Virus record (IMG/VR): IMGVR_UViG_2740892429_000003
DNA length: 42,039 nucleotides
Source: a virus
Taxonomy: Duplodnaviria > Heunggongvirae > Uroviricota > Caudoviricetes
Reading direction: 5' to 3' (one strand)
Shown here one piece after another: positions 1 through 8,851 of the stretch; positions within the stretch are counted from its first letter, which is position 1; each line of letters begins with the position of its first letter. Under the pieces are notes generated by a model that saw only the letters and a list, made by a program, of their open reading frames with translations, had not been told where the DNA came from and made no database searches. Both the position numbers and the translations under genes were made by a program.

Positions 1-267
1 ATGCGCAGAAAAGAGTCAAACGTTAGCAGTTTGCCGGAGCTCACCAATTTTGAGGTAAGCTATTCTCTGGTTACCAATGAAGTTTACTTGTCTGCATCCT
101 TCACTGATAACATGGCCAGTATACCAAACTGGCCCTTACAAGAATTTCCGGATCAACTAATATGCATTTCTCGAGCAAAAGCTGTTGCCCTAATCGAAGA
201 GCTCCAGAAGACCATCAACTATATGGATGCAGGAATAGATCGAAGTTCAGGTAGCCTTCTCCAGTAG
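1..267 (+). CDS. Hypothetical protein, possibly 5'-truncated by window edge
   Basis: ORF starts at window edge; low-GC; no motif recognised. Confidence 0.25.
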   Translation: MRRKESNVSSLPELTNFEVSYSLVTNEVYLSASFTDNMASIPNWPLQEFPDQLICISRAKAVALIEELQKTINYMDAGIDRSSGSLLQ

Positions 268-329
268 CTGACGAGTTTTATAATAATTTGATATATATAT
301 ATATCGTTCAATATTAGCGAGTACTTATA

Positions 330-977
330 ATGAGTGAATTTAGTAATTTTTTAAATAGCATTCCTGGATGGTTATCCTCCTCCCTCACAGCTCTAGTTGG
401 TACTCTTATTGGCGGATGGTTTACCCTAAAAGGAGTTACCCAACAAGCTAAGCTGTCTAAAGTAGAGACAGAAAGAGAATCCCTTGAATTGCAACTTTCA
501 GTATTAAAAGGTGTTAAGGGAGAAGTTTTCACCCTAATCAATTTATATAATAAAAGGATGAAAACACACATTGATAATATCAAACCCGGACAGATGTTAA
601 TTCTCACTTTCCCTGTAGGGGATGATAATTTCACATTCTATGAGCAAAATGCGAATGTCATTGCAAAACTAAATGATTCTGCCAGAGACTCAATAATTAA
701 TATCTACACATATTCACGGTCATTAATACAATCATTTAAAGGAAACAACAAACTCATTGAGGATTATGAAAAAATCCTTATTGGTATGGCTGACAATAAC
801 AAAGATAAAACCATGTATAAGAGATTACATGATGAAAAAATAGATGTAATGGTAGATTATGCTCAAGGGATAAAAAATATTGATGCAGAGCTAAGAGATG
901 CAGTCAATAAGGGATTCAACATTATCGACCAAGAAGTAAAGTCGCTACAAATGAAATTAAACAAATTAGCTTCATAG
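330..977 (+). CDS. Membrane-anchored hypothetical protein (cargo gene at tail-fiber end)
   Basis: 215 aa; hydrophobic N-terminal helix (LSSSLTALVGTLIGGWFTL) then K/E-rich coiled-coil-like region; low-GC versus tail genes. Confidence 0.5.
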   Translation: MSEFSNFLNSIPGWLSSSLTALVGTLIGGWFTLKGVTQQAKLSKVETERESLELQLSVLKGVKGEVFTLINLYNKRMKTHIDNIKPGQMLILTFPVGDDNFTFYEQNANVIAKLNDSARDSIINIYTYSRSLIQSFKGNNKLIEDYEKILIGMADNNKDKTMYKRLHDEKIDVMVDYAQGIKNIDAELRDAVNKGFNIIDQEVKSLQMKLNKLAS

Positions 978-1023
978 AAATGCTCCACTCCCTGTTCAAG
1001 ATTTTTACAAGCTTATCAGCCAG

Positions 1024-1056
1024 CCGTGGCACGTTCTTGCATACGACGTGCCACGG
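1024..1056 (+). terminator. Perfect 11-bp inverted repeat hairpin (ccgtggcacgt / acgtgccacgg), possible terminator
   Basis: Arms at 1024..1034 and 1046..1056 with 11-nt loop, followed by short T-rich stretch; lies between ORF 330..977 and the invertase remnant. Confidence 0.4.
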
Positions 1057-1061
1057 TTTCA

Positions 1062-1187
1062 TTCATCTCCGACCGGAAACTTCTTATACAAAGTCGATAC
1101 GCCAACATCATAGATGATCGCCACTTTCTGGCGAGAAACTCCTGATGCAATTTGTCGTCCAGCCTGCGCCCATTGCTCCGGCGTGAG
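1062..1187 (-). pseudogene. C-terminal remnant of a serine-recombinase DNA invertase (Gin/Pin/Hin type)
   Basis: Minus-strand translation LTPEQWAQAGRQIASGVSRQKVAIIYDVGVSTLYKKFPVGDE-stop matches the invertase C-terminal HTH (Gin ...EWEQAGRLLAQGIPRKQVALIYDVALSTLYKKHP); no start codon, N-terminal catalytic domain absent; upstream sequence is low-GC insert. Confidence 0.6.
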
Positions 1188-1271
1188 AGTAAGACAGTAA
1201 ACTGTAGAAAAATCTCATTAACCTTAATATAATAATAAGTTACAGAATTATCTTTACTGAATAATAGACAT

Positions 1272-1817
1272 ATGAATATTAGTGAACTTAAAAACTGTAT
1301 ACACTATGAAGTAATAGGTTATAAACGCCCTTTCTCCTGGCGAAAAGCAATTGTTCGCGCAATAAAACACAGAAGATTACGTTATTTATTTTGGTGGCGC
1401 ATAGCCAAATACCTTTTTGATAAAGGCGGATACTGTCGGAAGATTGCGAAAAAAATAGAACGTTTCATTCTTGATAAATATAATGTAACCGTTCCCTTAA
1501 CTGTAAATATTGGTAAAGGGTTCGACATATCTTATCTCAATGGCGTTGTTATCGGTCACAAAGTTACAATAGGTGAAAATTGTTCAATTAAGCCTGGAGT
1601 AACTATTGGACTTCGCGGTGAATTTAATGATATGGATATTGTCATAGGAAATAATGTAACCATTGGCTGTAACGCCACCATCCTTGGTGGCAAAGTGCAT
1701 ATAGGGAATAATGTAAAAATAGGAGCTCATGCATTGGTACTGCATGACATTCCTGATGACTCCACATTCATTACTAAATTTCACTCTGAAATTATTTATA
1801 ACTCATCTCACACATAA
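1272..1817 (+). CDS. Hexapeptide-repeat O-acetyltransferase (WcaB/CysE-like left-handed beta-helix)
   Basis: 181 aa with tandem hexapeptide repeats (VVIGHKVTIGENCSIKPGVTIG...IVIGNNVTIGCNATILGGKVHIGNNVKIGAHALV); very low GC; opposite orientation to flanking tail genes. Confidence 0.75.
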   Translation: MNISELKNCIHYEVIGYKRPFSWRKAIVRAIKHRRLRYLFWWRIAKYLFDKGGYCRKIAKKIERFILDKYNVTVPLTVNIGKGFDISYLNGVVIGHKVTIGENCSIKPGVTIGLRGEFNDMDIVIGNNVTIGCNATILGGKVHIGNNVKIGAHALVLHDIPDDSTFITKFHSEIIYNSSHT

Positions 1818-1827
1818 TTCCGTTTAA

Positions 1828-2400
1828 TCACAGCTCTGGCCATACGATATCCGGGGCTGTATTTATATCAATCCGACTCACTAATACCCGGTATTTTTTC
1901 CAGGAAGATAGCATCGATACTTCCTCATCAGTTGCCATTTCAAAATTAACAGCATCCTGCAGAATTGTTATGTTATCAGTCGCTTCCTGGATTAATCTTG
2001 CCTTTTTCTCTTCCGCCTCCCGGATCCGGAACAGTTTTTCTCCTTCTGCATCTTTCACCCAGGCTGTGCCGTTCCACTTCTGAAACTCCCCATCCGGCGA
2101 CAACCAGGTGACGTTTTCCGGTAACGGACCGAGTTCAGAAATAAATAATGCGTCCCCTGATGCCACGTCATAAACCGTTTTACCCCGATGATCTTCAACG
2201 AGATGCCACGATGACTCATCACTGTTGAAAACAGCCACGAAGCCAGCCGGAATATCTGGCGGTGCAATATAGGTACTGTTTGCAGGCAGACCTGTATGAG
2301 GTGGAATATATGCATCACCTTCACCAATAAATTCATTAGTTCCGGACAGCAGATTATAAATTTTTATGGTCCGTGATTGTTCACTCATTCTGAATGCCAT
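1828..2400 (-). CDS. Tail fiber assembly protein (Tfa, Mu U / P2 G-like)
   Basis: 190 aa; immediately downstream of tail fiber gene with overlapping stop/start; typical Tfa N-terminal sequence ([35 protein letters not shown]). Confidence 0.8.
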
Positions 2401-3515
2401 TATGCAAGCCTCACAATATAGTTAAATGCGATGTTTTTGACGGTGTTTTCCGCGTTACCAGCAGCGTTAACGGTGATGGTGTGTCCATGTGAACCAATCG
2501 CAACAGAGTGCGTATGTGCACCAATAGCGACAGTATGTGTATGCGCCCCAGCACTTGCTGCAGTACCTGATACTGAGTGGGTATGCGCGCCAGCAGAATT
2601 CGTTGCACCTAAGTGAGTTTGAGCAGAGTTCGACGAAGCTACTCTACCGGAGCTAACGTTAGCATTATCCCCCTGAGATATCGGATGCGTATGTGCACCT
2701 GCTGAAGCTGCTGTTCCGCTAACGCTATGGGTATGCGCACCAGTGTTATTCGTAGATTTAGTTCCATAATCAAACGATGATGTGTTTTTTGTCCCTAAAT
2801 CTGTATTTGAAGCACTGGCGCTGTGGGTGTGCGATTTAATGCCGTCTTGTTCCTGGCTAAGAACATCACGTCCACTTGCAGGCTTACCTTTGATTGTCCA
2901 GCCACGCATATCAGGGATCACGCCTGACGGATAAGCGGCTGCAAGTTTCGGGTATGCAGACTTATCAAAAGTCTGTCCCTGCATCAGAGCATAACCAGAT
3001 GGAACTGTATCTGATGGCCACGGGATCGGGGCACCTACAGGAAAGGTCGAATTATTTTCCAAACCAAGATATTTAAGGACATCAGCAACAGAGCTTTTTG
3101 CCAAAATATCTCGCCCAACCTGTGTCAGGTCAGCCAAATTAGCGGTATCTTGATTGGTAAAATACGGTAATTTGTTTTCGGATGCTGAAAGATTAGCAAG
3201 TGCGGTAAGTATGGCATTAATTCTCTGATAGTTCTTATCTAATGCAGACGACATTTTTGCGATAAAGCCGGCCTGATCGCCATCGTCCTGTACATCCAGT
3301 CCACTTTCATTTGCTGTATATTGTGCCATTGCAGATGCAATAAAGCTGGCCTGCCGAATAACCTTATTGACTTGCGCACTGGATGCTTTCCCTGCTGTAA
3401 ATCCGGATAAAAGCGCAGGCAACGCTTCCCATTCCTCCTGCGACATAACATTGGCATTTTTACCCGTTGCGAATGCTTTAAAGTCATTTTTTGCCATCAG
3501 AGTAATACTCCCCAT
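2400..3515 (-). CDS. Tail fiber protein with C-terminal His-X-His repeat tip
   Basis: 371 aa; C-terminus with repeated [19 protein letters not shown] units and terminal [12 protein letters not shown]; position after baseplate genes. Confidence 0.75.
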
Positions 3516-4177
3516 GCCCCTACATCAAAACCACTGATAAATTCGTTATCCATATCAAAACCAAAAAATTTTGAGCCTTCCGATGGGGTTTCCACCGAAG
3601 GTGTTTCAATGCCCCCCGCCCATACCCCGGCGGCTTTTACTGTGAGATACCCCTGTTTAATTGCCGCAATTAACTCACGCGATACATCTGAAATATCAGT
3701 ATCAGGAAAGACCCAGACCGATATCGTCATGTCCTGGTTATCGACTATCTGCATTCGCAGCCCGGATCCTGCTGTTGCCGCGTCAAGAATTGCCGGAAGC
3801 GAATCATTCCGTCCGTCCCAGTTATTAATCGCAATCTTCGCTTTAAGAATGACACGATAAGTTTCATCGCGGAGATACATGTATCCAGAATCAGGATCAT
3901 ATGGCCCCTGCCATACACCCTGATCATATCCAAGCCCGTCGGTATCCCAGCTGAAATAGACACCTGAGATAAGCTGGCTGACAACACGGCTACGTCCGAT
4001 CCACAATCCCAGAATGTCAAGTTGCACACCAACCGCAGAGTCAATATCAAATGCAGTAATCAGCCCTCTGGTGGCCGCCGCAACATCAATAAGCGGCCGG
4101 GTCATCAGATCAACATGTGCAAGAAATTTAGGTTTGGTGGCGTGGTAGTTCGTGATTAGTTCGGTGTATTTGCTCAT
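3497..4177 (-). CDS. Baseplate/tail protein (Mu gp48 / P2 gpI-like)
   Basis: 226 aa; gene order between baseplate J-like and tail fiber. Confidence 0.55.
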
Positions 4178-5373
4178 GACTCCACCGTTATAACGATATT
4201 TTCCGGGGTACAGGACGCAGATTCGTTGTATCTGATATCAACGTTTGATGACGACAAAGCCCCCGGGGATTTCCCAATCGTCAGTTCCTGAATATCGTAA
4301 TAGCGTGCATTCCCGCCACTCACCACGCTAAGATTCGCCGGTGAGTAAATGCGACTTAAAAGGACCGAATCACCAATCATCAGACTATTGATATAGTCGG
4401 AAATAGCCTGCTGGATCTGCTGCCCTATCTGTGAGGTATAACCCGTAAAAACTTTTAATTTGATCCGGGCATAAACAGGTACATCACTGGAACGCGAGAA
4501 CTTGATTACATGGGGATTGCCGTATTTATCCGGAACCGTAACGGATGTTGTACCGTGAGTGGCTGTCCCCTGACCTTTATTCCCTCTGATAGCCTGAGCA
4601 ATATCCGTCACATCACCGCCATCCACAATTACAGCAACAGAGTGTGGCGGTAACCCGTTACCGTCCTCCGAACCAGTATCGTTTTCATAGAGTTTGTGGC
4701 GGGTTACACCTGTAACATTAGAAACAGCACCATCCAGTGCTTCAAATGGGGTTATTGATGGCAACGCAACACTTTGCGACTGGCGGATACGTAACTCCGC
4801 ATCAGTTTCTGCCGGAGTGCCCACCGTAGCTGCAGCAGGATTGGTTACCGAAACCCAGCCACGGGTTGGCGTATTAATTTCAGTGATAGTTCCAGCCAGC
4901 GCCGCCACTGCACCACTGACAGAACATGTTGCGGTCGCCATCACTGTACCATCCACGCCGACCACCACTGAAGCAGGCAAACGCCATATCACATTATTAC
5001 TGTCTTTCACGCTGCCATTAATGATGGTTGTTCCGGCAGTTCCTGTAAGAAGCAAATCAACCGTAGAATTCGTCGCGCCTTTACGTGAAATACCATTTAT
5101 TTTCACGTTACTGGTCAGTGCGGCTCCATAGCCGGTTGCTGGTGAAAAACAGTTATAGACAGTTATCGCCATATTATTGGCATCATGAATCGCCAGCGCC
5201 ATCAGAGCCACCATCTGGCCGTCTTTACTGTCTGGTTCGAGGTAGGCATCACTGCCATAAATCTGCTGAAAATAGCTAATCAGGGTGCTGAGTATCGTCT
5301 GATAATCAGGCGCACTGATCCCCTCCGCGGTTACCTTTGCAGATAAACCGAGAGAATCAAGGTTCAGAGCCAT
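4174..5373 (-). CDS. Baseplate J-like protein
   Basis: 399 aa; size, composition and position typical of baseplate J (Mu gp47 / P2 gpJ). Confidence 0.6.
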   Translation of the reverse strand: MALNLDSLGLSAKVTAEGISAPDYQTILSTLISYFQQIYGSDAYLEPDSKDGQMVALMALAIHDANNMAITVYNCFSPATGYGAALTSNVKINGISRKGATNSTVDLLLTGTAGTTIINGSVKDSNNVIWRLPASVVVGVDGTVMATATCSVSGAVAALAGTITEINTPTRGWVSVTNPAAATVGTPAETDAELRIRQSQSVALPSITPFEALDGAVSNVTGVTRHKLYENDTGSEDGNGLPPHSVAVIVDGGDVTDIAQAIRGNKGQGTATHGTTSVTVPDKYGNPHVIKFSRSSDVPVYARIKLKVFTGYTSQIGQQIQQAISDYINSLMIGDSVLLSRIYSPANLSVVSGGNARYYDIQELTIGKSPGALSSSNVDIRYNESASCTPENIVITVES

Positions 5374-5726
5374 TACGCCTCCGATGTAACAGTCGTTATT
5401 CCATAGAGAGTGTCGATTTCAGTGGAAAACCTGACACGTCGGGTCGTGGTATCCACCGTAGTATTGAAAGAGAGGATTGATTTAACGCCCCGCGTTTCGA
5501 GGATGCGCTTACGGATCGCCAGGTTGTAGGTTTCCGGCTTCTGCTTACCGAGTACGGACTGGATCCACGGAGTCCCCTCGGTGGTGTCGAGAAACCATTG
5601 CCCATACCACAATTCGAATCGCGTTTTTACCGCCTGCGCCACGGCCTCCGGTAAGTTAATCAGCCAGGTGTCATCACCGCTGCCAAAGGTGTAATCGCCA
5701 TCGGCGTCTTCACGTCTGTATCGCAT
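5373..5726 (-). CDS. Baseplate wedge protein (gpW/gp25-like)
   Basis: 117 aa; translationally coupled between spike-like and J-like genes. Confidence 0.5.
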   Translation of the reverse strand: MRYRREDADGDYTFGSGDDTWLINLPEAVAQAVKTRFELWYGQWFLDTTEGTPWIQSVLGKQKPETYNLAIRKRILETRGVKSILSFNTTVDTTTRRVRFSTEIDTLYGITTVTSEA

Positions 5727-6478
5727 CAGTTTACTCCGTCGGTATTGCTTCCACCGCGCTGAACACCACCATGAGTGTGCGTATCATCGATTGGCTTGCC
5801 GTTAGCCTTCACGCTACCCAAAAACTCAACAGCACCAGTGATTTTTGAAGCCACACCAGAAACAACAGCCCCCACCATGCCACCCATCCAGGTTAACAGT
5901 CCATGAATGGTTACTTTCTCAGAAAAATCAGCCAGAGGGGCAACCACATCAAGACCACCCGGAGCGACAATTTTAATTTTCCTGGTATCAGGATTAAGCT
6001 CAAAATAGGTGCTGCCGTCATCACTACGCAACTGTGTGGCACTGGTATTAATACCGCTAATCTTCCTTGCCTGCGACTGGGGACCGACAATACAAAACGC
6101 ATCCGATAAATCATGCATTCTGTCATCGACCGGCTCCTGTATCCCGCCGCTCTGCCACCAGAAATCAATACAACGATCGGCAAAAATCACCAAACACTCA
6201 TCACCGGCTTTTACCGGAAAAGTCAACGTACATCCTCCGCCGCGCGGGAATACCACTGGCACATCCACCAGCAATGGGTAATTTTGGGTAATGCGGTTGC
6301 CGTCATTATCCTTTTCAACCGAACGGATAGCAGGCTGCACAACTGCCGTCACCGCATCAGGATCGAATGACTGAATAATGCCAGGCAAGGCGACACGGAT
6401 CTGGTTCTTTGTTGTTTCCCGTTCAGATTTGAATGTTTCGGCAAGGTCGCCGCTGCGGGTCTGGTCAGATACGGCCAT
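5726..6478 (-). CDS. Baseplate spike / assembly protein V-like
   Basis: 250 aa; position and size consistent with Mu gp45 / P2 gpV. Confidence 0.5.
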   Translation of the reverse strand: MAVSDQTRSGDLAETFKSERETTKNQIRVALPGIIQSFDPDAVTAVVQPAIRSVEKDNDGNRITQNYPLLVDVPVVFPRGGGCTLTFPVKAGDECLVIFADRCIDFWWQSGGIQEPVDDRMHDLSDAFCIVGPQSQARKISGINTSATQLRSDDGSTYFELNPDTRKIKIVAPGGLDVVAPLADFSEKVTIHGLLTWMGGMVGAVVSGVASKITGAVEFLGSVKANGKPIDDTHTHGGVQRGGSNTDGVN

Positions 6479-6496
6479 TTAGTAGGCTCCAGAAAG

Positions 6497-6520
6497 CAAA
6501 AAACCCGCCGAAGCGGGTTT
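6497..6520 (-). terminator. Rho-independent terminator (minus strand)
   Basis: Minus-strand stem ACCCGC-ttcg-GCGGGT followed by TTTTTTGCTTT; sits directly downstream of the inserted cassette 6536..7784. Confidence 0.6.
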
Positions 6521-6535
6521 GAAAGGATGTATGGA

Positions 6536-7108
6536 TTATTTAGGTTTCTTCCTACCATAAACAAACACTGTAGTTAATCCTACGAGATCTAAAGTAGCAA
6601 GAGTACCTGCGAACCAAGTGTTACCGCGATTAGCAAAAAACGCAGCCATTATAAGCACTACCATTGCAATGCAAAATCCCATCCATTGCCCACGTTTGTC
6701 GCGTGAAACCGCACCAAGTAATGCATCACTTTGCGTCTTATGCCTATGCTCTTGCTCTTTTTCGGTTAGCCTGAAAATTCTCTCAGCGCCGCCGGGTAAT
6801 ATTTGATTATATTGTAAGAGCATAGCAGGAGGTGGGAGTGGTCCCTGAAAAGACTCCTGCTGAAACATGGCAATAACCTTCGGGTTCTTAGAAACTCTCT
6901 CAAGAAGTTCAGGTGTTAACTTCGATTTTAGCTCAGGATCAAGGTTGGCAACTGCAGACAGCTTTTCCACTACTTCCTGAGACTCATCATATTCCGAGGA
7001 ATCAATATCTTCGTCGATACCATCCGAATCAGGAACGGCTTTTTGCGACGCTTTGTTTTCCTGATGCTTTTTGAGAACGGCCGCCTGCTTGCGGGGTTTT
7101 GAACTCAT
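6536..7108 (-). CDS. Cargo gene: inner-membrane protein with acidic N-terminal region and two C-terminal TM helices
   Basis: 190 aa; D/E/S-rich N-terminal half, C-terminal GFCIAMVVLIMAAFFA and LATLDLVGLTTVFVYG; lower GC than tail genes; start may lie further downstream. Confidence 0.45.
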   Translation of the reverse strand: MSSKPRKQAAVLKKHQENKASQKAVPDSDGIDEDIDSSEYDESQEVVEKLSAVANLDPELKSKLTPELLERVSKNPKVIAMFQQESFQGPLPPPAMLLQYNQILPGGAERIFRLTEKEQEHRHKTQSDALLGAVSRDKRGQWMGFCIAMVVLIMAAFFANRGNTWFAGTLATLDLVGLTTVFVYGRKKPK

Positions 7109-7786: not shown

Positions 7787-8851
7787 CTATAATCCTCTCT
7801 GCAAAGCAGTGCTGGATGGCATATCCTGCGCACCGCGCGCTTCGCACATCATATCCATGTACCACGCCTGGCCCCTTGTGTCACCAGTGTACATAATCCC
7901 GCGCACAATATAAACGCCATCCGTTGCGATGCTGGCAGGCTGCGATGTGGTGCCGCTGAGCGTGATATTTCCGTCTGTGTTCTGGTCGGTGATCTGCCCA
8001 CCGGCCATCGCGATATCGTTGTTCGACAACGCGGTACGATACACGGAAGCCTGATCCAGCTGAATGAGCCCGTTAACCCGGATGTTCGGATTAATAAGCG
8101 CACGGACGTTTACGCCGTTACCGATGGTCTGCTGAGGCATACCAATAAGCCCCGTGGCACTGTTGAGCACAATCGCTTCGTGAACATATTCGTTATTCGC
8201 CACCATCTGGCGCTGACCGTCCACGAATTGCCATGTTGCGCCACATTGCCCGGCTACGTTATCCATTAGATGCCGCGTCATGCCAAAGAGCACCCGTCCC
8301 CGGGGGAATACAGTAGCAGGCATTTCAGGCGTCAGGCCTTCGGTCGCGCCTTTGGCTTCGAAGTCTTTCATCAGCGCACGGTTCACATCAGCGACCGTGT
8401 AACCGGCAGCCAGCGTCTGTGAGGTTATACTGGTGGCAAAAGCCAGATCAGTATCTGCTGCCTGAATCAGGACGTAGGAATCAACCGGACTGTCTTTTCC
8501 TGTGACCGAGTAGCGAATTTCACCGCTGAAAATTAGTCCGTAGTTGCGGCCATCACTCTGGCCCACGTCCGCCGCGTCAACTTCCCGCACAGTCCCGACG
8601 TCACTTGCCGACACCTCCGGCGCGATACCGTCGTAACCCGCAATCAGACGCACTTTCGAAAACTCCTGCCCGGTGATTCGGTTCACAGTATCTGCCGAGA
8701 GGTTATAAATTTTGATAGTCCCTACCCGGGACGCGCTGCTGATGTTGAACCAGTCGATCGTAAAGGTGACTTTAAAATCACTTAGCTCAATTCCCTGACC
8801 GTTCTCGTCCACAAGCTGCAGCTCGAAATGTCTCATCCAGTTCTGTGACAT
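7787..8851 (-). CDS. Tail protein, gpD-like (late control D / baseplate hub family)
   Basis: 354 aa; position downstream of tape measure and small tail proteins; inference from synteny. Confidence 0.5.
   Translation of the reverse strand: MSQNWMRHFELQLVDENGQGIELSDFKVTFTIDWFNISSASRVGTIKIYNLSADTVNRITGQEFSKVRLIAGYDGIAPEVSASDVGTVREVDAADVGQSDGRNYGLIFSGEIRYSVTGKDSPVDSYVLIQAADTDLAFATSITSQTLAAGYTVADVNRALMKDFEAKGATEGLTPEMPATVFPRGRVLFGMTRHLMDNVAGQCGATWQFVDGQRQMVANNEYVHEAIVLNSATGLIGMPQQTIGNGVNVRALINPNIRVNGLIQLDQASVYRTALSNNDIAMAGGQITDQNTDGNITLSGTTSQPASIATDGVYIVRGIMYTGDTRGQAWYMDMMCEARGAQDMPSSTALQRGL

Follow-up and report, generated by a model that had tools for sequence, protein, structure and literature searches.

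The left end of a 42,039-nucleotide (nt) Caudoviricetes sequence (IMG/VR record IMGVR_UViG_2740892429_000003; this whole stretch is called the window below) carries the remnant of a DNA invertase gene, a gene for a hexapeptide-repeat acyltransferase (AT), the gene of a tail-fibre assembly chaperone (Tfa) and a chimeric tail-fibre gene. Bases 900-2000 of the window are a 100% match to the chromosome of Escherichia coli 21KM1392 (NZ_CP151067.1), in which the prophage spans from just after yfhH to yfhL and is complete in the window. The features of the locus are as follows.

1015..3042: cassette in common with a lambdoid prophage, made up of truncated pin ('pin), AT, tfa and an Stf-type fibre tip
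1024..1056: stem-loop directly 3' of the pin stop codon
1059..1187, minus strand: Pin-type serine invertase remnant, the last 42 codons plus stop, recognized by HTH_7, a RefSeq pseudogene call and DNA identity to pinE
1179..1204: left junction, from mismatch maps and alignments
1179..3336: replacement segment of 2158 bp, in place of a 2544-bp inversion module in a sister prophage
1205..1233, plus strand: sigma-70 promoter-like site TAGAAA-17-TATAAT, a consensus match 39 nt upstream of the AT start
1272..1817, plus strand: intact open reading frame (ORF) of the hexapeptide-repeat AT, 181 amino acids; Pfam Hexapep, PHROG 2154
1828..2400, minus strand: Tfa, 190 amino acids; Pfam Caudo_TAP (E=2.4e-37), phrog_105 (E=1.4e-91)
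2400..3497, minus strand: chimeric tail-fibre gene, intact, within an open frame 2400..3515; Pfam Collar and Phage_fiber

The invertase remnant preserves one end of a serine recombinase gene. Minus strand 1062..1187 translates to LTPEQWAQAGRQIASGVSRQKVAIIYDVGVSTLYKKFPVGDE, with the stop codon at 1059..1061, and matches Pfam HTH_7 (PF02796), the resolvase helix-turn-helix (HTH) domain (E=8.6e-10, 39 bits against a cut-off of 23.8), showing that the C-terminal DNA-binding domain of the invertase has been kept. The DNA of the stub is approximately 94% identical to pinE 3' ends, and in RefSeq 1059..1187 carries a pseudogene label, 'missing N-terminus'. The stub lacks a start codon, its reading frame is interrupted upstream by in-frame stops, and a tblastn search of the whole window with P1-type Cin returned residues 146-180 only, leaving the resolvase catalytic domain with its active-site serine not found. 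An initial reading of the letters and their ORFs made without database searches (the sequence-only reading) had already described these last 42 residues of a Gin/Pin/Hin-type invertase without start codon or catalytic domain, and the significant similarity to serine recombinases confirms it.

Directly beyond the pin stop lies the stem-loop, a perfect 14-bp stem (RNA fold -24.8 kcal/mol, z = -4.3) that is kept wherever the pin 3' end occurs: in the lambdoid prophage locus (L002), in the sister prophage locus of E. coli 2000-3039 (L003) and in the E. coli IR53017 locus (L005), the last with two compensatory base-pair changes, CCGCAGCACG...CGTGCTGCGG. This hairpin is probably the pin terminator, and it possibly acts in both directions, also terminating the plus-strand ORF at 330..977. 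At a prophage end in E. coli IR53017 (L005 5043..6832), a different, longer pin C-terminal stub adjoins a tailspike-like gene of the GH55 family. It seems that invertase stubs recur beside exchanged receptor-binding modules.

The sister prophage in E. coli 2000-3039 belongs to the same family, occupies the same yfhH site and contains a whole inversion module, consisting of a gp53-like fibre gene, tfa, an inverted tfaE (tfa'), the alternative fibre tip Sv', two pix sites and pinE. Its invertible segment is bounded by 20-nt inverted pix arms, AAACGTTGGTTTGGGAGAAG / CTTCTCCCAAACCAAGGTTT, at 6675-6694 and 8532-8551. This pinE is itself annotated as frameshifted, and the prophage documents how the whole module is built without proving that the switch works. 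Blastn aligns window 1..1178 with L003 5006..6178 at 96.8% identity and window 3337..6509 with L003 8723..11895 at 96.4%. The comparison with an inversion region that the sequence-only reading had suggested thereby places the replacement junctions at 1178/1179 and 3336/3337, and the 2544 bp replaced comprise Sv, tfa, tfa', Sv', the two pix sites and most of pinE. At the left junction, homology to intact pinE stops at approximately 1179-1189 and homology to the AT cassettes of P1-like and P2-like elements starts at approximately 1198-1204, with some 15-20 nt between them that match neither. No pix 19-mer occurs in the window at up to 3 mismatches, and matches to the core AAACCNNGGTTT in the window are at chance level and distant from the fibre gene. 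With the catalytic domain, both crossover sites and Sv'/tfa' all absent, the fibre segment is, by its gene content, non-invertible.

What took the place of this module also exists elsewhere. Window 1015..3042 is 92.6% identical over 2035 bp to the lambdoid prophage of strain WP8-S17-ESBL-05 (L002), where the cassette lies at the end of a prophage integrated at att-lambda, on the bioA-ybhB side, and the pin breakpoint is identical in the two loci. Furthermore, nine IMG/VR contigs with ATs 97-99% identical to that of the window have, equally far upstream of AT, a Cin-like stub on the minus strand. The presence of the cassette in a lambdoid prophage, identical in its pin junction, shows 'pin-AT-tfa-fibre tip to be ready-made and to have moved as a unit.

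The fibre gene records the other side of the exchange. The first ~53 codons (3337..3497) encode the adaptor native to the phage family, and the distal part, including the Stf-type His-rich tip, is imported. Similarly, window 2003..2400, which takes in the distal part of tfa plus a single terminal base of the fibre gene, has 92.7% DNA identity to lambda orf-194 (tfa) and the end of orf-314. Among complete E. coli genomes, 505 have the adaptor region 3337..3520 but just 22 have this chimeric fibre, and the break at 3337 is the usual boundary between constant and variable parts of the fibre gene in this family. Alignments across the family show that the adaptor of about 53 codons is constant and everything distal to it is exchanged. 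RefSeq flags only 2400..3044, as a 'partial' fibre; the frame is nonetheless open for 365-371 codons, and the flag seems to result from the chimeric N-terminus and not from damage. A 14-nt repeat present five times at 2509..2741 codes for GAHTHS His-rich repeats of the fibre tip, a feature usual in tips of the lambda Stf and T4 gp37 types.

The shared cassette, together with a tip and chaperone foreign to the phage family, therefore indicates that the switch was lost by module exchange and not by insertion of cargo in situ. The sequence-only reading had held that the cargo replaced the host-range switch. The module and its crossover sites are indeed gone, but a whole pre-formed cassette was exchanged instead of AT being inserted. 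The transfer would most probably have occurred by homologous recombination, with a first crossover within the fibre gene and a second within or next to the conserved 3' end of pin, this end having served as a portable homology arm; the outcome would be a phage with a single fixed host range and no switch. The pin 3' end and its hairpin are a plausible left arm. Among the hits inspected, none had an intact pin directly beside an AT of the class at least 95% identical. In itself, the exchange of a fibre module here is ordinary phage mosaicism.

The phage that received the cassette is an integrase-type temperate myovirus. Its early and regulatory genes encode a tyrosine integrase, a DEAD-box helicase, a DNA polymerase, a VapE primase, a LexA-like repressor, a Q antiterminator and a lambda-type holin; its structural genes encode terminase, a DUF1073 portal, a DUF2184 capsid protein, a DUF3383 sheath, a DUF3277 tube, baseplate J and DUF2612. 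The tyrosine integrase, LexA-like repressor, Q antiterminator and DNA polymerase of its own set it apart from transposable Mu-type phages. The locus had been described as lying exactly where Mu-type phages carry their alternative fibre genes and gin; the position is borne out by the sister prophage, which has its switch exactly there, and the assignment to the Mu type is not. The closest counterparts are the modules of the Din family (Mu G segment with Gin, P1 C segment with Cin, e14 P segment with Pin), with which the window shares the position at the end of the tail operon, the same types of fibre and Tfa genes and, in its stub, the HTH domain of a Pin-type invertase (94% DNA identity to pinE 3' ends). 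It differs from them in having no catalytic domain, crossover sites or Sv'/tfa', and in a host phage that is not transposable.

The AT gene stands out from its surroundings in composition. GC content falls from 0.49 at 1001-1200 to 0.30 at 1201-1400, remains at 0.35-0.38 over AT and is 0.45-0.53 in the tail genes, in line with the abrupt change at approximately 1200 upstream of the stub that had been noticed from the letters alone. As also noticed there, AT is an intact 181-codon hexapeptide ORF opposite to the fibre genes, convergent on minus-strand tfa and fibre, with the stop codons of AT and tfa only 10 nt apart. The promoter-like site is the best-scoring one in 1..2500, with 10 of 12 consensus matches. 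Both hexamers are kept in the lambdoid, P1-like and P2-like AT copies, in which the -10 is TATAAT or TACAAT, and the sequence common to AT copies starts just upstream of this site. Comparison with the same three kinds of copies gives ratios of nonsynonymous to synonymous substitution rates (dN/dS) of 0.08-0.18, consistent with strong purifying selection on a real, selected gene. It is present in 315 of 5426 complete E. coli genomes (~6%).

At the protein level, AT consists of four N-terminal helices followed by a hexapeptide left-handed beta-helix. It matches Pfam Hexapep (E=1.1e-13, 50.6 bits against a cut-off of 27) and, over its full length, phrog_2154 (E=1.3e-78, residues 1-180 on profile positions 4-184 of 185); structure prediction and a fold search added nothing specific. 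RefSeq names the product 'serine acetyltransferase'. The best curated NCBIfam families are EpsC, CysE, WcaB and NeuD, all below cut-off: EpsC scores 88.5 bits against 150, WcaB 60.2-60.5 against 194.65-196, and the cysE models TIGR01172 and NF008349 79.9 against 210.65 and 51.4 against 397, respectively. The Vat and CatB families also match, weakly. Among solved structures, the best sequence matches are serine acetyltransferases (SATs; E=2.6e-13).

These scores place AT in the fold of CysE, EpsC and WcaB, which it resembles as its best NCBIfam and PDB sequence matches; it parts from them in the serine-binding and catalytic residues and in falling below every curated cut-off. For the residue comparison, AT was aligned to an E. 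coli CysE sequence whose numbering reproduces D92, D143, D157, H158, R192 and H193. In CysE, Asp143-His158 is the catalytic dyad, and Asp157, Arg192 and His193 bind substrate. CysE D143, D157, H158, R192 and H193 correspond to T73, S87, Y88, M121 and D122 of AT, and HMMER alignments to the SAT structures 6wye and 4n69 give the same replacements. AT also has no N-terminal SAT domain. By these sequence criteria AT is neither a serine acetyltransferase nor WcaB, and the earlier description of it as WcaB/CysE-like stands at superfamily level only. The loss of the dyad is a property of a clade. In a set of 80 relatives on viral contigs, all those at 35-52% identity have Asp or Glu at position 73 and His at position 88; in the window's clade (at least 87% identity), 40 of 40 have Thr73 and Tyr88, along with a conserved His96. 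The coils of the beta-helix that are of the coenzyme A (CoA)-binding type are well conserved.

Relatives of AT are repeatedly linked to tfa. An opposite-strand Tfa gene terminates between -30 and +100 nt from the AT stop at 65 of the 80 IMG/VR loci, and three more have a fibre or Tfa gene nearby. Convergent AT-tfa pairs occur in the lambdoid prophage, in P2-like prophages, on a 47-kb P2-like plasmid and in a P1-like phage-plasmid, as well as in phage vB_EcoM-613R2, Hafnia phage yong2 and Citrobacter phage phiNP. The linked fibre has an Stf-type tip in 14 of 21 sampled. AT and Tfa identities are weakly correlated (Spearman 0.18), with discordant pairs in both directions (AT 38-41% with Tfa 78-79%; AT 53-54% with Tfa 42%). 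The adjacency is therefore not simply that of one diverging cassette, and the pairing has survived reassortment.

Phage genes of PHROG 2154 named 'serine acetyltransferase', in vB_EcoM-613R2, yong2, phiNP, ESSI2 and JL22 (sacF), are the nearest described relatives. In 613R2, yong2, phiNP and JL22 the AT gene is convergent beside tfa, as in the window; in ESSI2 it is beside the integrase instead. The 613R2 protein is 92% identical to that of the window, yong2 has Tyr at the position of the dyad His like the window's clade, the His is retained in phiNP, ESSI2 and JL22, and with it the Asp in phiNP and ESSI2. Two P1-like elements combine AT relatives with invertase genes. In JL22 (L026 2327..7790), sacF (37% identity) is located inside the invertible C segment, between two tfa genes; 602-nt inverted repeats bound the segment, and cin is intact. 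With the segment in the other orientation, sacF could be transcribed behind the alternative fibre genes, and its expression might depend on the state of the switch. In the P1-like contig L074 (5525..6543), only the 79 N-terminal codons of cin remain, and they lie just upstream of an AT homologue (44% identity); a duplicated fragment of the S-fibre N-terminus comes next, on the other strand. The L074 cin is a second, independent invertase truncation next to this AT family.

A single prophage-encoded left-handed beta-helix acyltransferase with a known target offers a model for AT. The gene of this enzyme, NeuO of CUS-3, is near a receptor-binding gene at the prophage end, and the enzyme illustrates how a cytoplasmic protein can modify a receptor or capsule. 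NeuO O-acetylates the polysialic-acid K1 capsule (PMC3046976). AT likewise resembles morons and other hotspot cargo (P2 Z/fun, the lom and bor type of lambda) in its low GC content, in a promoter-like site of its own, in running against the late operon and in lying where the tail-fibre genes end; it differs in that no terminator was detected and in that the same gene family recurs instead of variable cargo.

Based on the NeuO analogy and on the closest curated families (EpsC, CysE, WcaB and NeuD), we propose that AT is a lysogen-expressed moron of the PHROG 2154 family, members of which would acylate a cytoplasmic precursor of an envelope glycan, be it the lipopolysaccharide (LPS) core, the O-unit, enterobacterial common antigen or colanic acid. 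A relative located beside two GT4 glycosyltransferase genes leans towards a polysaccharide target as well. The acylated glycan would mask the receptor used by Tfa-dependent fibres, and the lysogen would thereby exclude both the same phage and its relatives, as with NeuO for the K1 capsule in CUS-3 lysogens. As a function of the family this is a tentative proposal, somewhat short of an even chance, and for the dyad-less clade of the window it is less probable again. Acetylation of a surface polysaccharide, as the sequence-only reading had suggested, is plausible by analogy. Overall, we favour, with moderate confidence, the combination of a fixed cassette acquired by exchange and an AT that acts as a receptor-masking moron. 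A broader version seems to us rather unlikely, namely that convergent tfa and opposite-strand AT together make up a functional unit that has gone unrecognised although many temperate phages of enterobacteria carry it. In such a unit, AT would condition the envelope against Tfa-dependent fibres (with Stf/'IVRLA' tips), and the common E. coli clade, with Thr-Tyr for the Asp/Glu-His dyad, would use a new chemistry or a non-catalytic mode.

Several observations weigh against parts of this account. Over approximately 170 nt, the pin stub differs from the lambdoid copy at 5 positions and from the sister prophage at 10, too few sites to give the direction of transfer, and no intrinsic terminator was found after the AT gene. 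The lost dyad weakens the idea of polysaccharide acetylation for the window's clade, in which the usual SAT-type O-acetyl transfer with T73 and Y88 is doubtful; with the dyad replaced by Thr-Tyr, the clade must therefore use other chemistry or act without catalysis. Lambda Stf-type tips are known to bind OmpC or the LPS core, and E. coli is not known to have an O-acetylated core. The site after tfa is a general position for morons and hotspot cargo, P2 Z/fun being an example, and adjacency to tfa could reflect recombination at the conserved tfa 3' end, not function. Stand-alone copies also exist. In E. coli O145:H28 RM12761 (L027 4941..5492), an AT of the dyad-less clade (75% amino-acid identity) lies between ybjL and rcdA, without phage genes nearby, and another copy, on a metagenome contig, lies between copA and cueR, the source name of its protein being Citrobacter freundii complex. 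Like the RM12761 copy, 71 E. coli records fall in a band of 60-80% DNA identity, and in the nine sampled the acetyltransferase is the only annotation. The contexts of other non-phage relatives are mixed, with one in a glycosyltransferase cluster (beside two GT4 genes), one a true CysE beside cysteine synthase and several solitary, and they leave the substrate of AT unfixed. The full-text literature yielded no tested function for these AT genes: the authors of JL22 call the role of the gene unknown (PMC9603915), and in phiNP it is merely listed as 'fitness' cargo (PMC6456863). A study of Klebsiella prophages did count putative prophage acetyltransferases among predictors of capsule type, and these belong to a different family.

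The alternative that survives best is that AT is hotspot cargo unrelated to the surface, serving defence, counter-defence or the acylation of small molecules in the manner of Vat, CatB, LacA and Maa, and that the tfa site is merely permissive. The stand-alone chromosomal copies without fibre genes and the reassortment of AT and Tfa lineages agree with such a role, as do the P2 Z/fun-equivalent position in P2-like elements, neighbouring cargo that includes hicAB and dinI, and the weak Vat and CatB matches. Against it, what is found beside tfa, in at least five phage architectures and 65 of the 80 viral contigs, is one gene family and not varied cargo; its best-scoring families are of polysaccharide-locus or SAT type, not xenobiotic acetyltransferases, and PADLOC defence models do not match AT. 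We consider this alternative unlikely.

Somewhat less probable still is an event in situ, in which a low-GC acetyltransferase cargo entered the inversion module of this phage and thereby removed the alternative fibre genes together with most of the invertase gene. In its favour, the pin stub still adjoins its native downstream flank (window 1..1178, 96.8% to the sister prophage), invertases have been truncated beside AT at least twice independently (a C-terminal stub here, the N-terminal 79 amino acids of cin in L074), and since JL22 has AT within an intact invertible segment, a simple deletion could give 'pin-AT-tfa. What argues against an insertion in situ is that the same junction, AT, tfa and tip occur at 92.6% in the lambdoid prophage, with a like-placed stub in nine viral contigs, so that pin was truncated before at least one of the two contexts arose; tfa and the fibre tip are moreover foreign to the phage family, and more than the switch was therefore exchanged.

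A further alternative, about as improbable, concerns the window's clade alone and takes its AT to be a catalytically dead pseudo-enzyme kept for binding or regulation, for example by sequestering acyl-CoA or sugar nucleotides or as a partner of the fibre or Tfa. Both dyad positions are changed (D/E73 to T, H88 to Y) where every relative at 35-52% identity has the acidic residue and His, and strong purifying selection and well-conserved CoA-binding-type coils would fit a protein of this kind. Set against it, the His96 conserved in the clade might substitute, no evidence of any AT partner was found, and some left-handed beta-helix N-acetyltransferases (QdtC, WlbB) work without a catalytic base. 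That AT is a genuine serine O-acetyltransferase boosting cysteine synthesis in the lysogen, as the RefSeq name and the solved-structure matches would have it, is effectively refuted by the score of 79.9 bits against the TIGR01172 cut-off of 210.65, the missing N-terminal SAT domain and the replacement of D143, D157, H158, R192 and H193 by T, S, Y, M and D.

Between the cassette and yfhH, the prophage end holds two low-GC ORFs.

1..267, plus strand: 88-amino-acid ORF at the prophage end beside yfhH; phrog_17793 (E=1.3e-44), RefSeq hypothetical protein
330..977, plus strand: 215-amino-acid ORF with a hydrophobic N-terminus, then a coiled-coil-like region

The longer ORF is annotated in the sister prophage too, and the DNA of both aligns there. 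Searches of the 215-amino-acid product against Pfam, NCBIfam, PHROGs and PADLOC gave no match except a sub-threshold one to DUF7201, and PADLOC models matched neither ORF in 1..977. Both could be further lysogen-expressed cargo. In the replication module, a SIR2-family protein is encoded between the DNA polymerase and DUF2815 genes (L006 11293..12774, approximately window 29.3-30.7 kb), near genes for a DNA cytosine methyltransferase and a class I S-adenosylmethionine (SAM) methyltransferase; it is a possible prophage-borne defence gene.

Taken alone, the locus matters little, since fibre-module exchange and invertase decay are routine in E. coli prophages and both the stub and AT are already annotated in RefSeq. 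It is a degenerate Din-type inversion locus combined with a prophage beta-helix acyltransferase moron, both known kinds, and only the recurrent tfa-AT pairing and the lost dyad deserve modest attention. The RefSeq name 'serine acetyltransferase' is wrong in substance for a family that about 6% of complete E. coli genomes and many phages carry. The tie to tfa across lambdoid, P1-like, P2-like and other phages makes the AT family a testable candidate for receptor masking or superinfection exclusion. The invertase stub, for its part, illustrates a conserved gene end as a homology arm that could carry a fibre cassette between unrelated phages, an idea relevant to the prediction of prophage host range and to the engineering of phage fibres.

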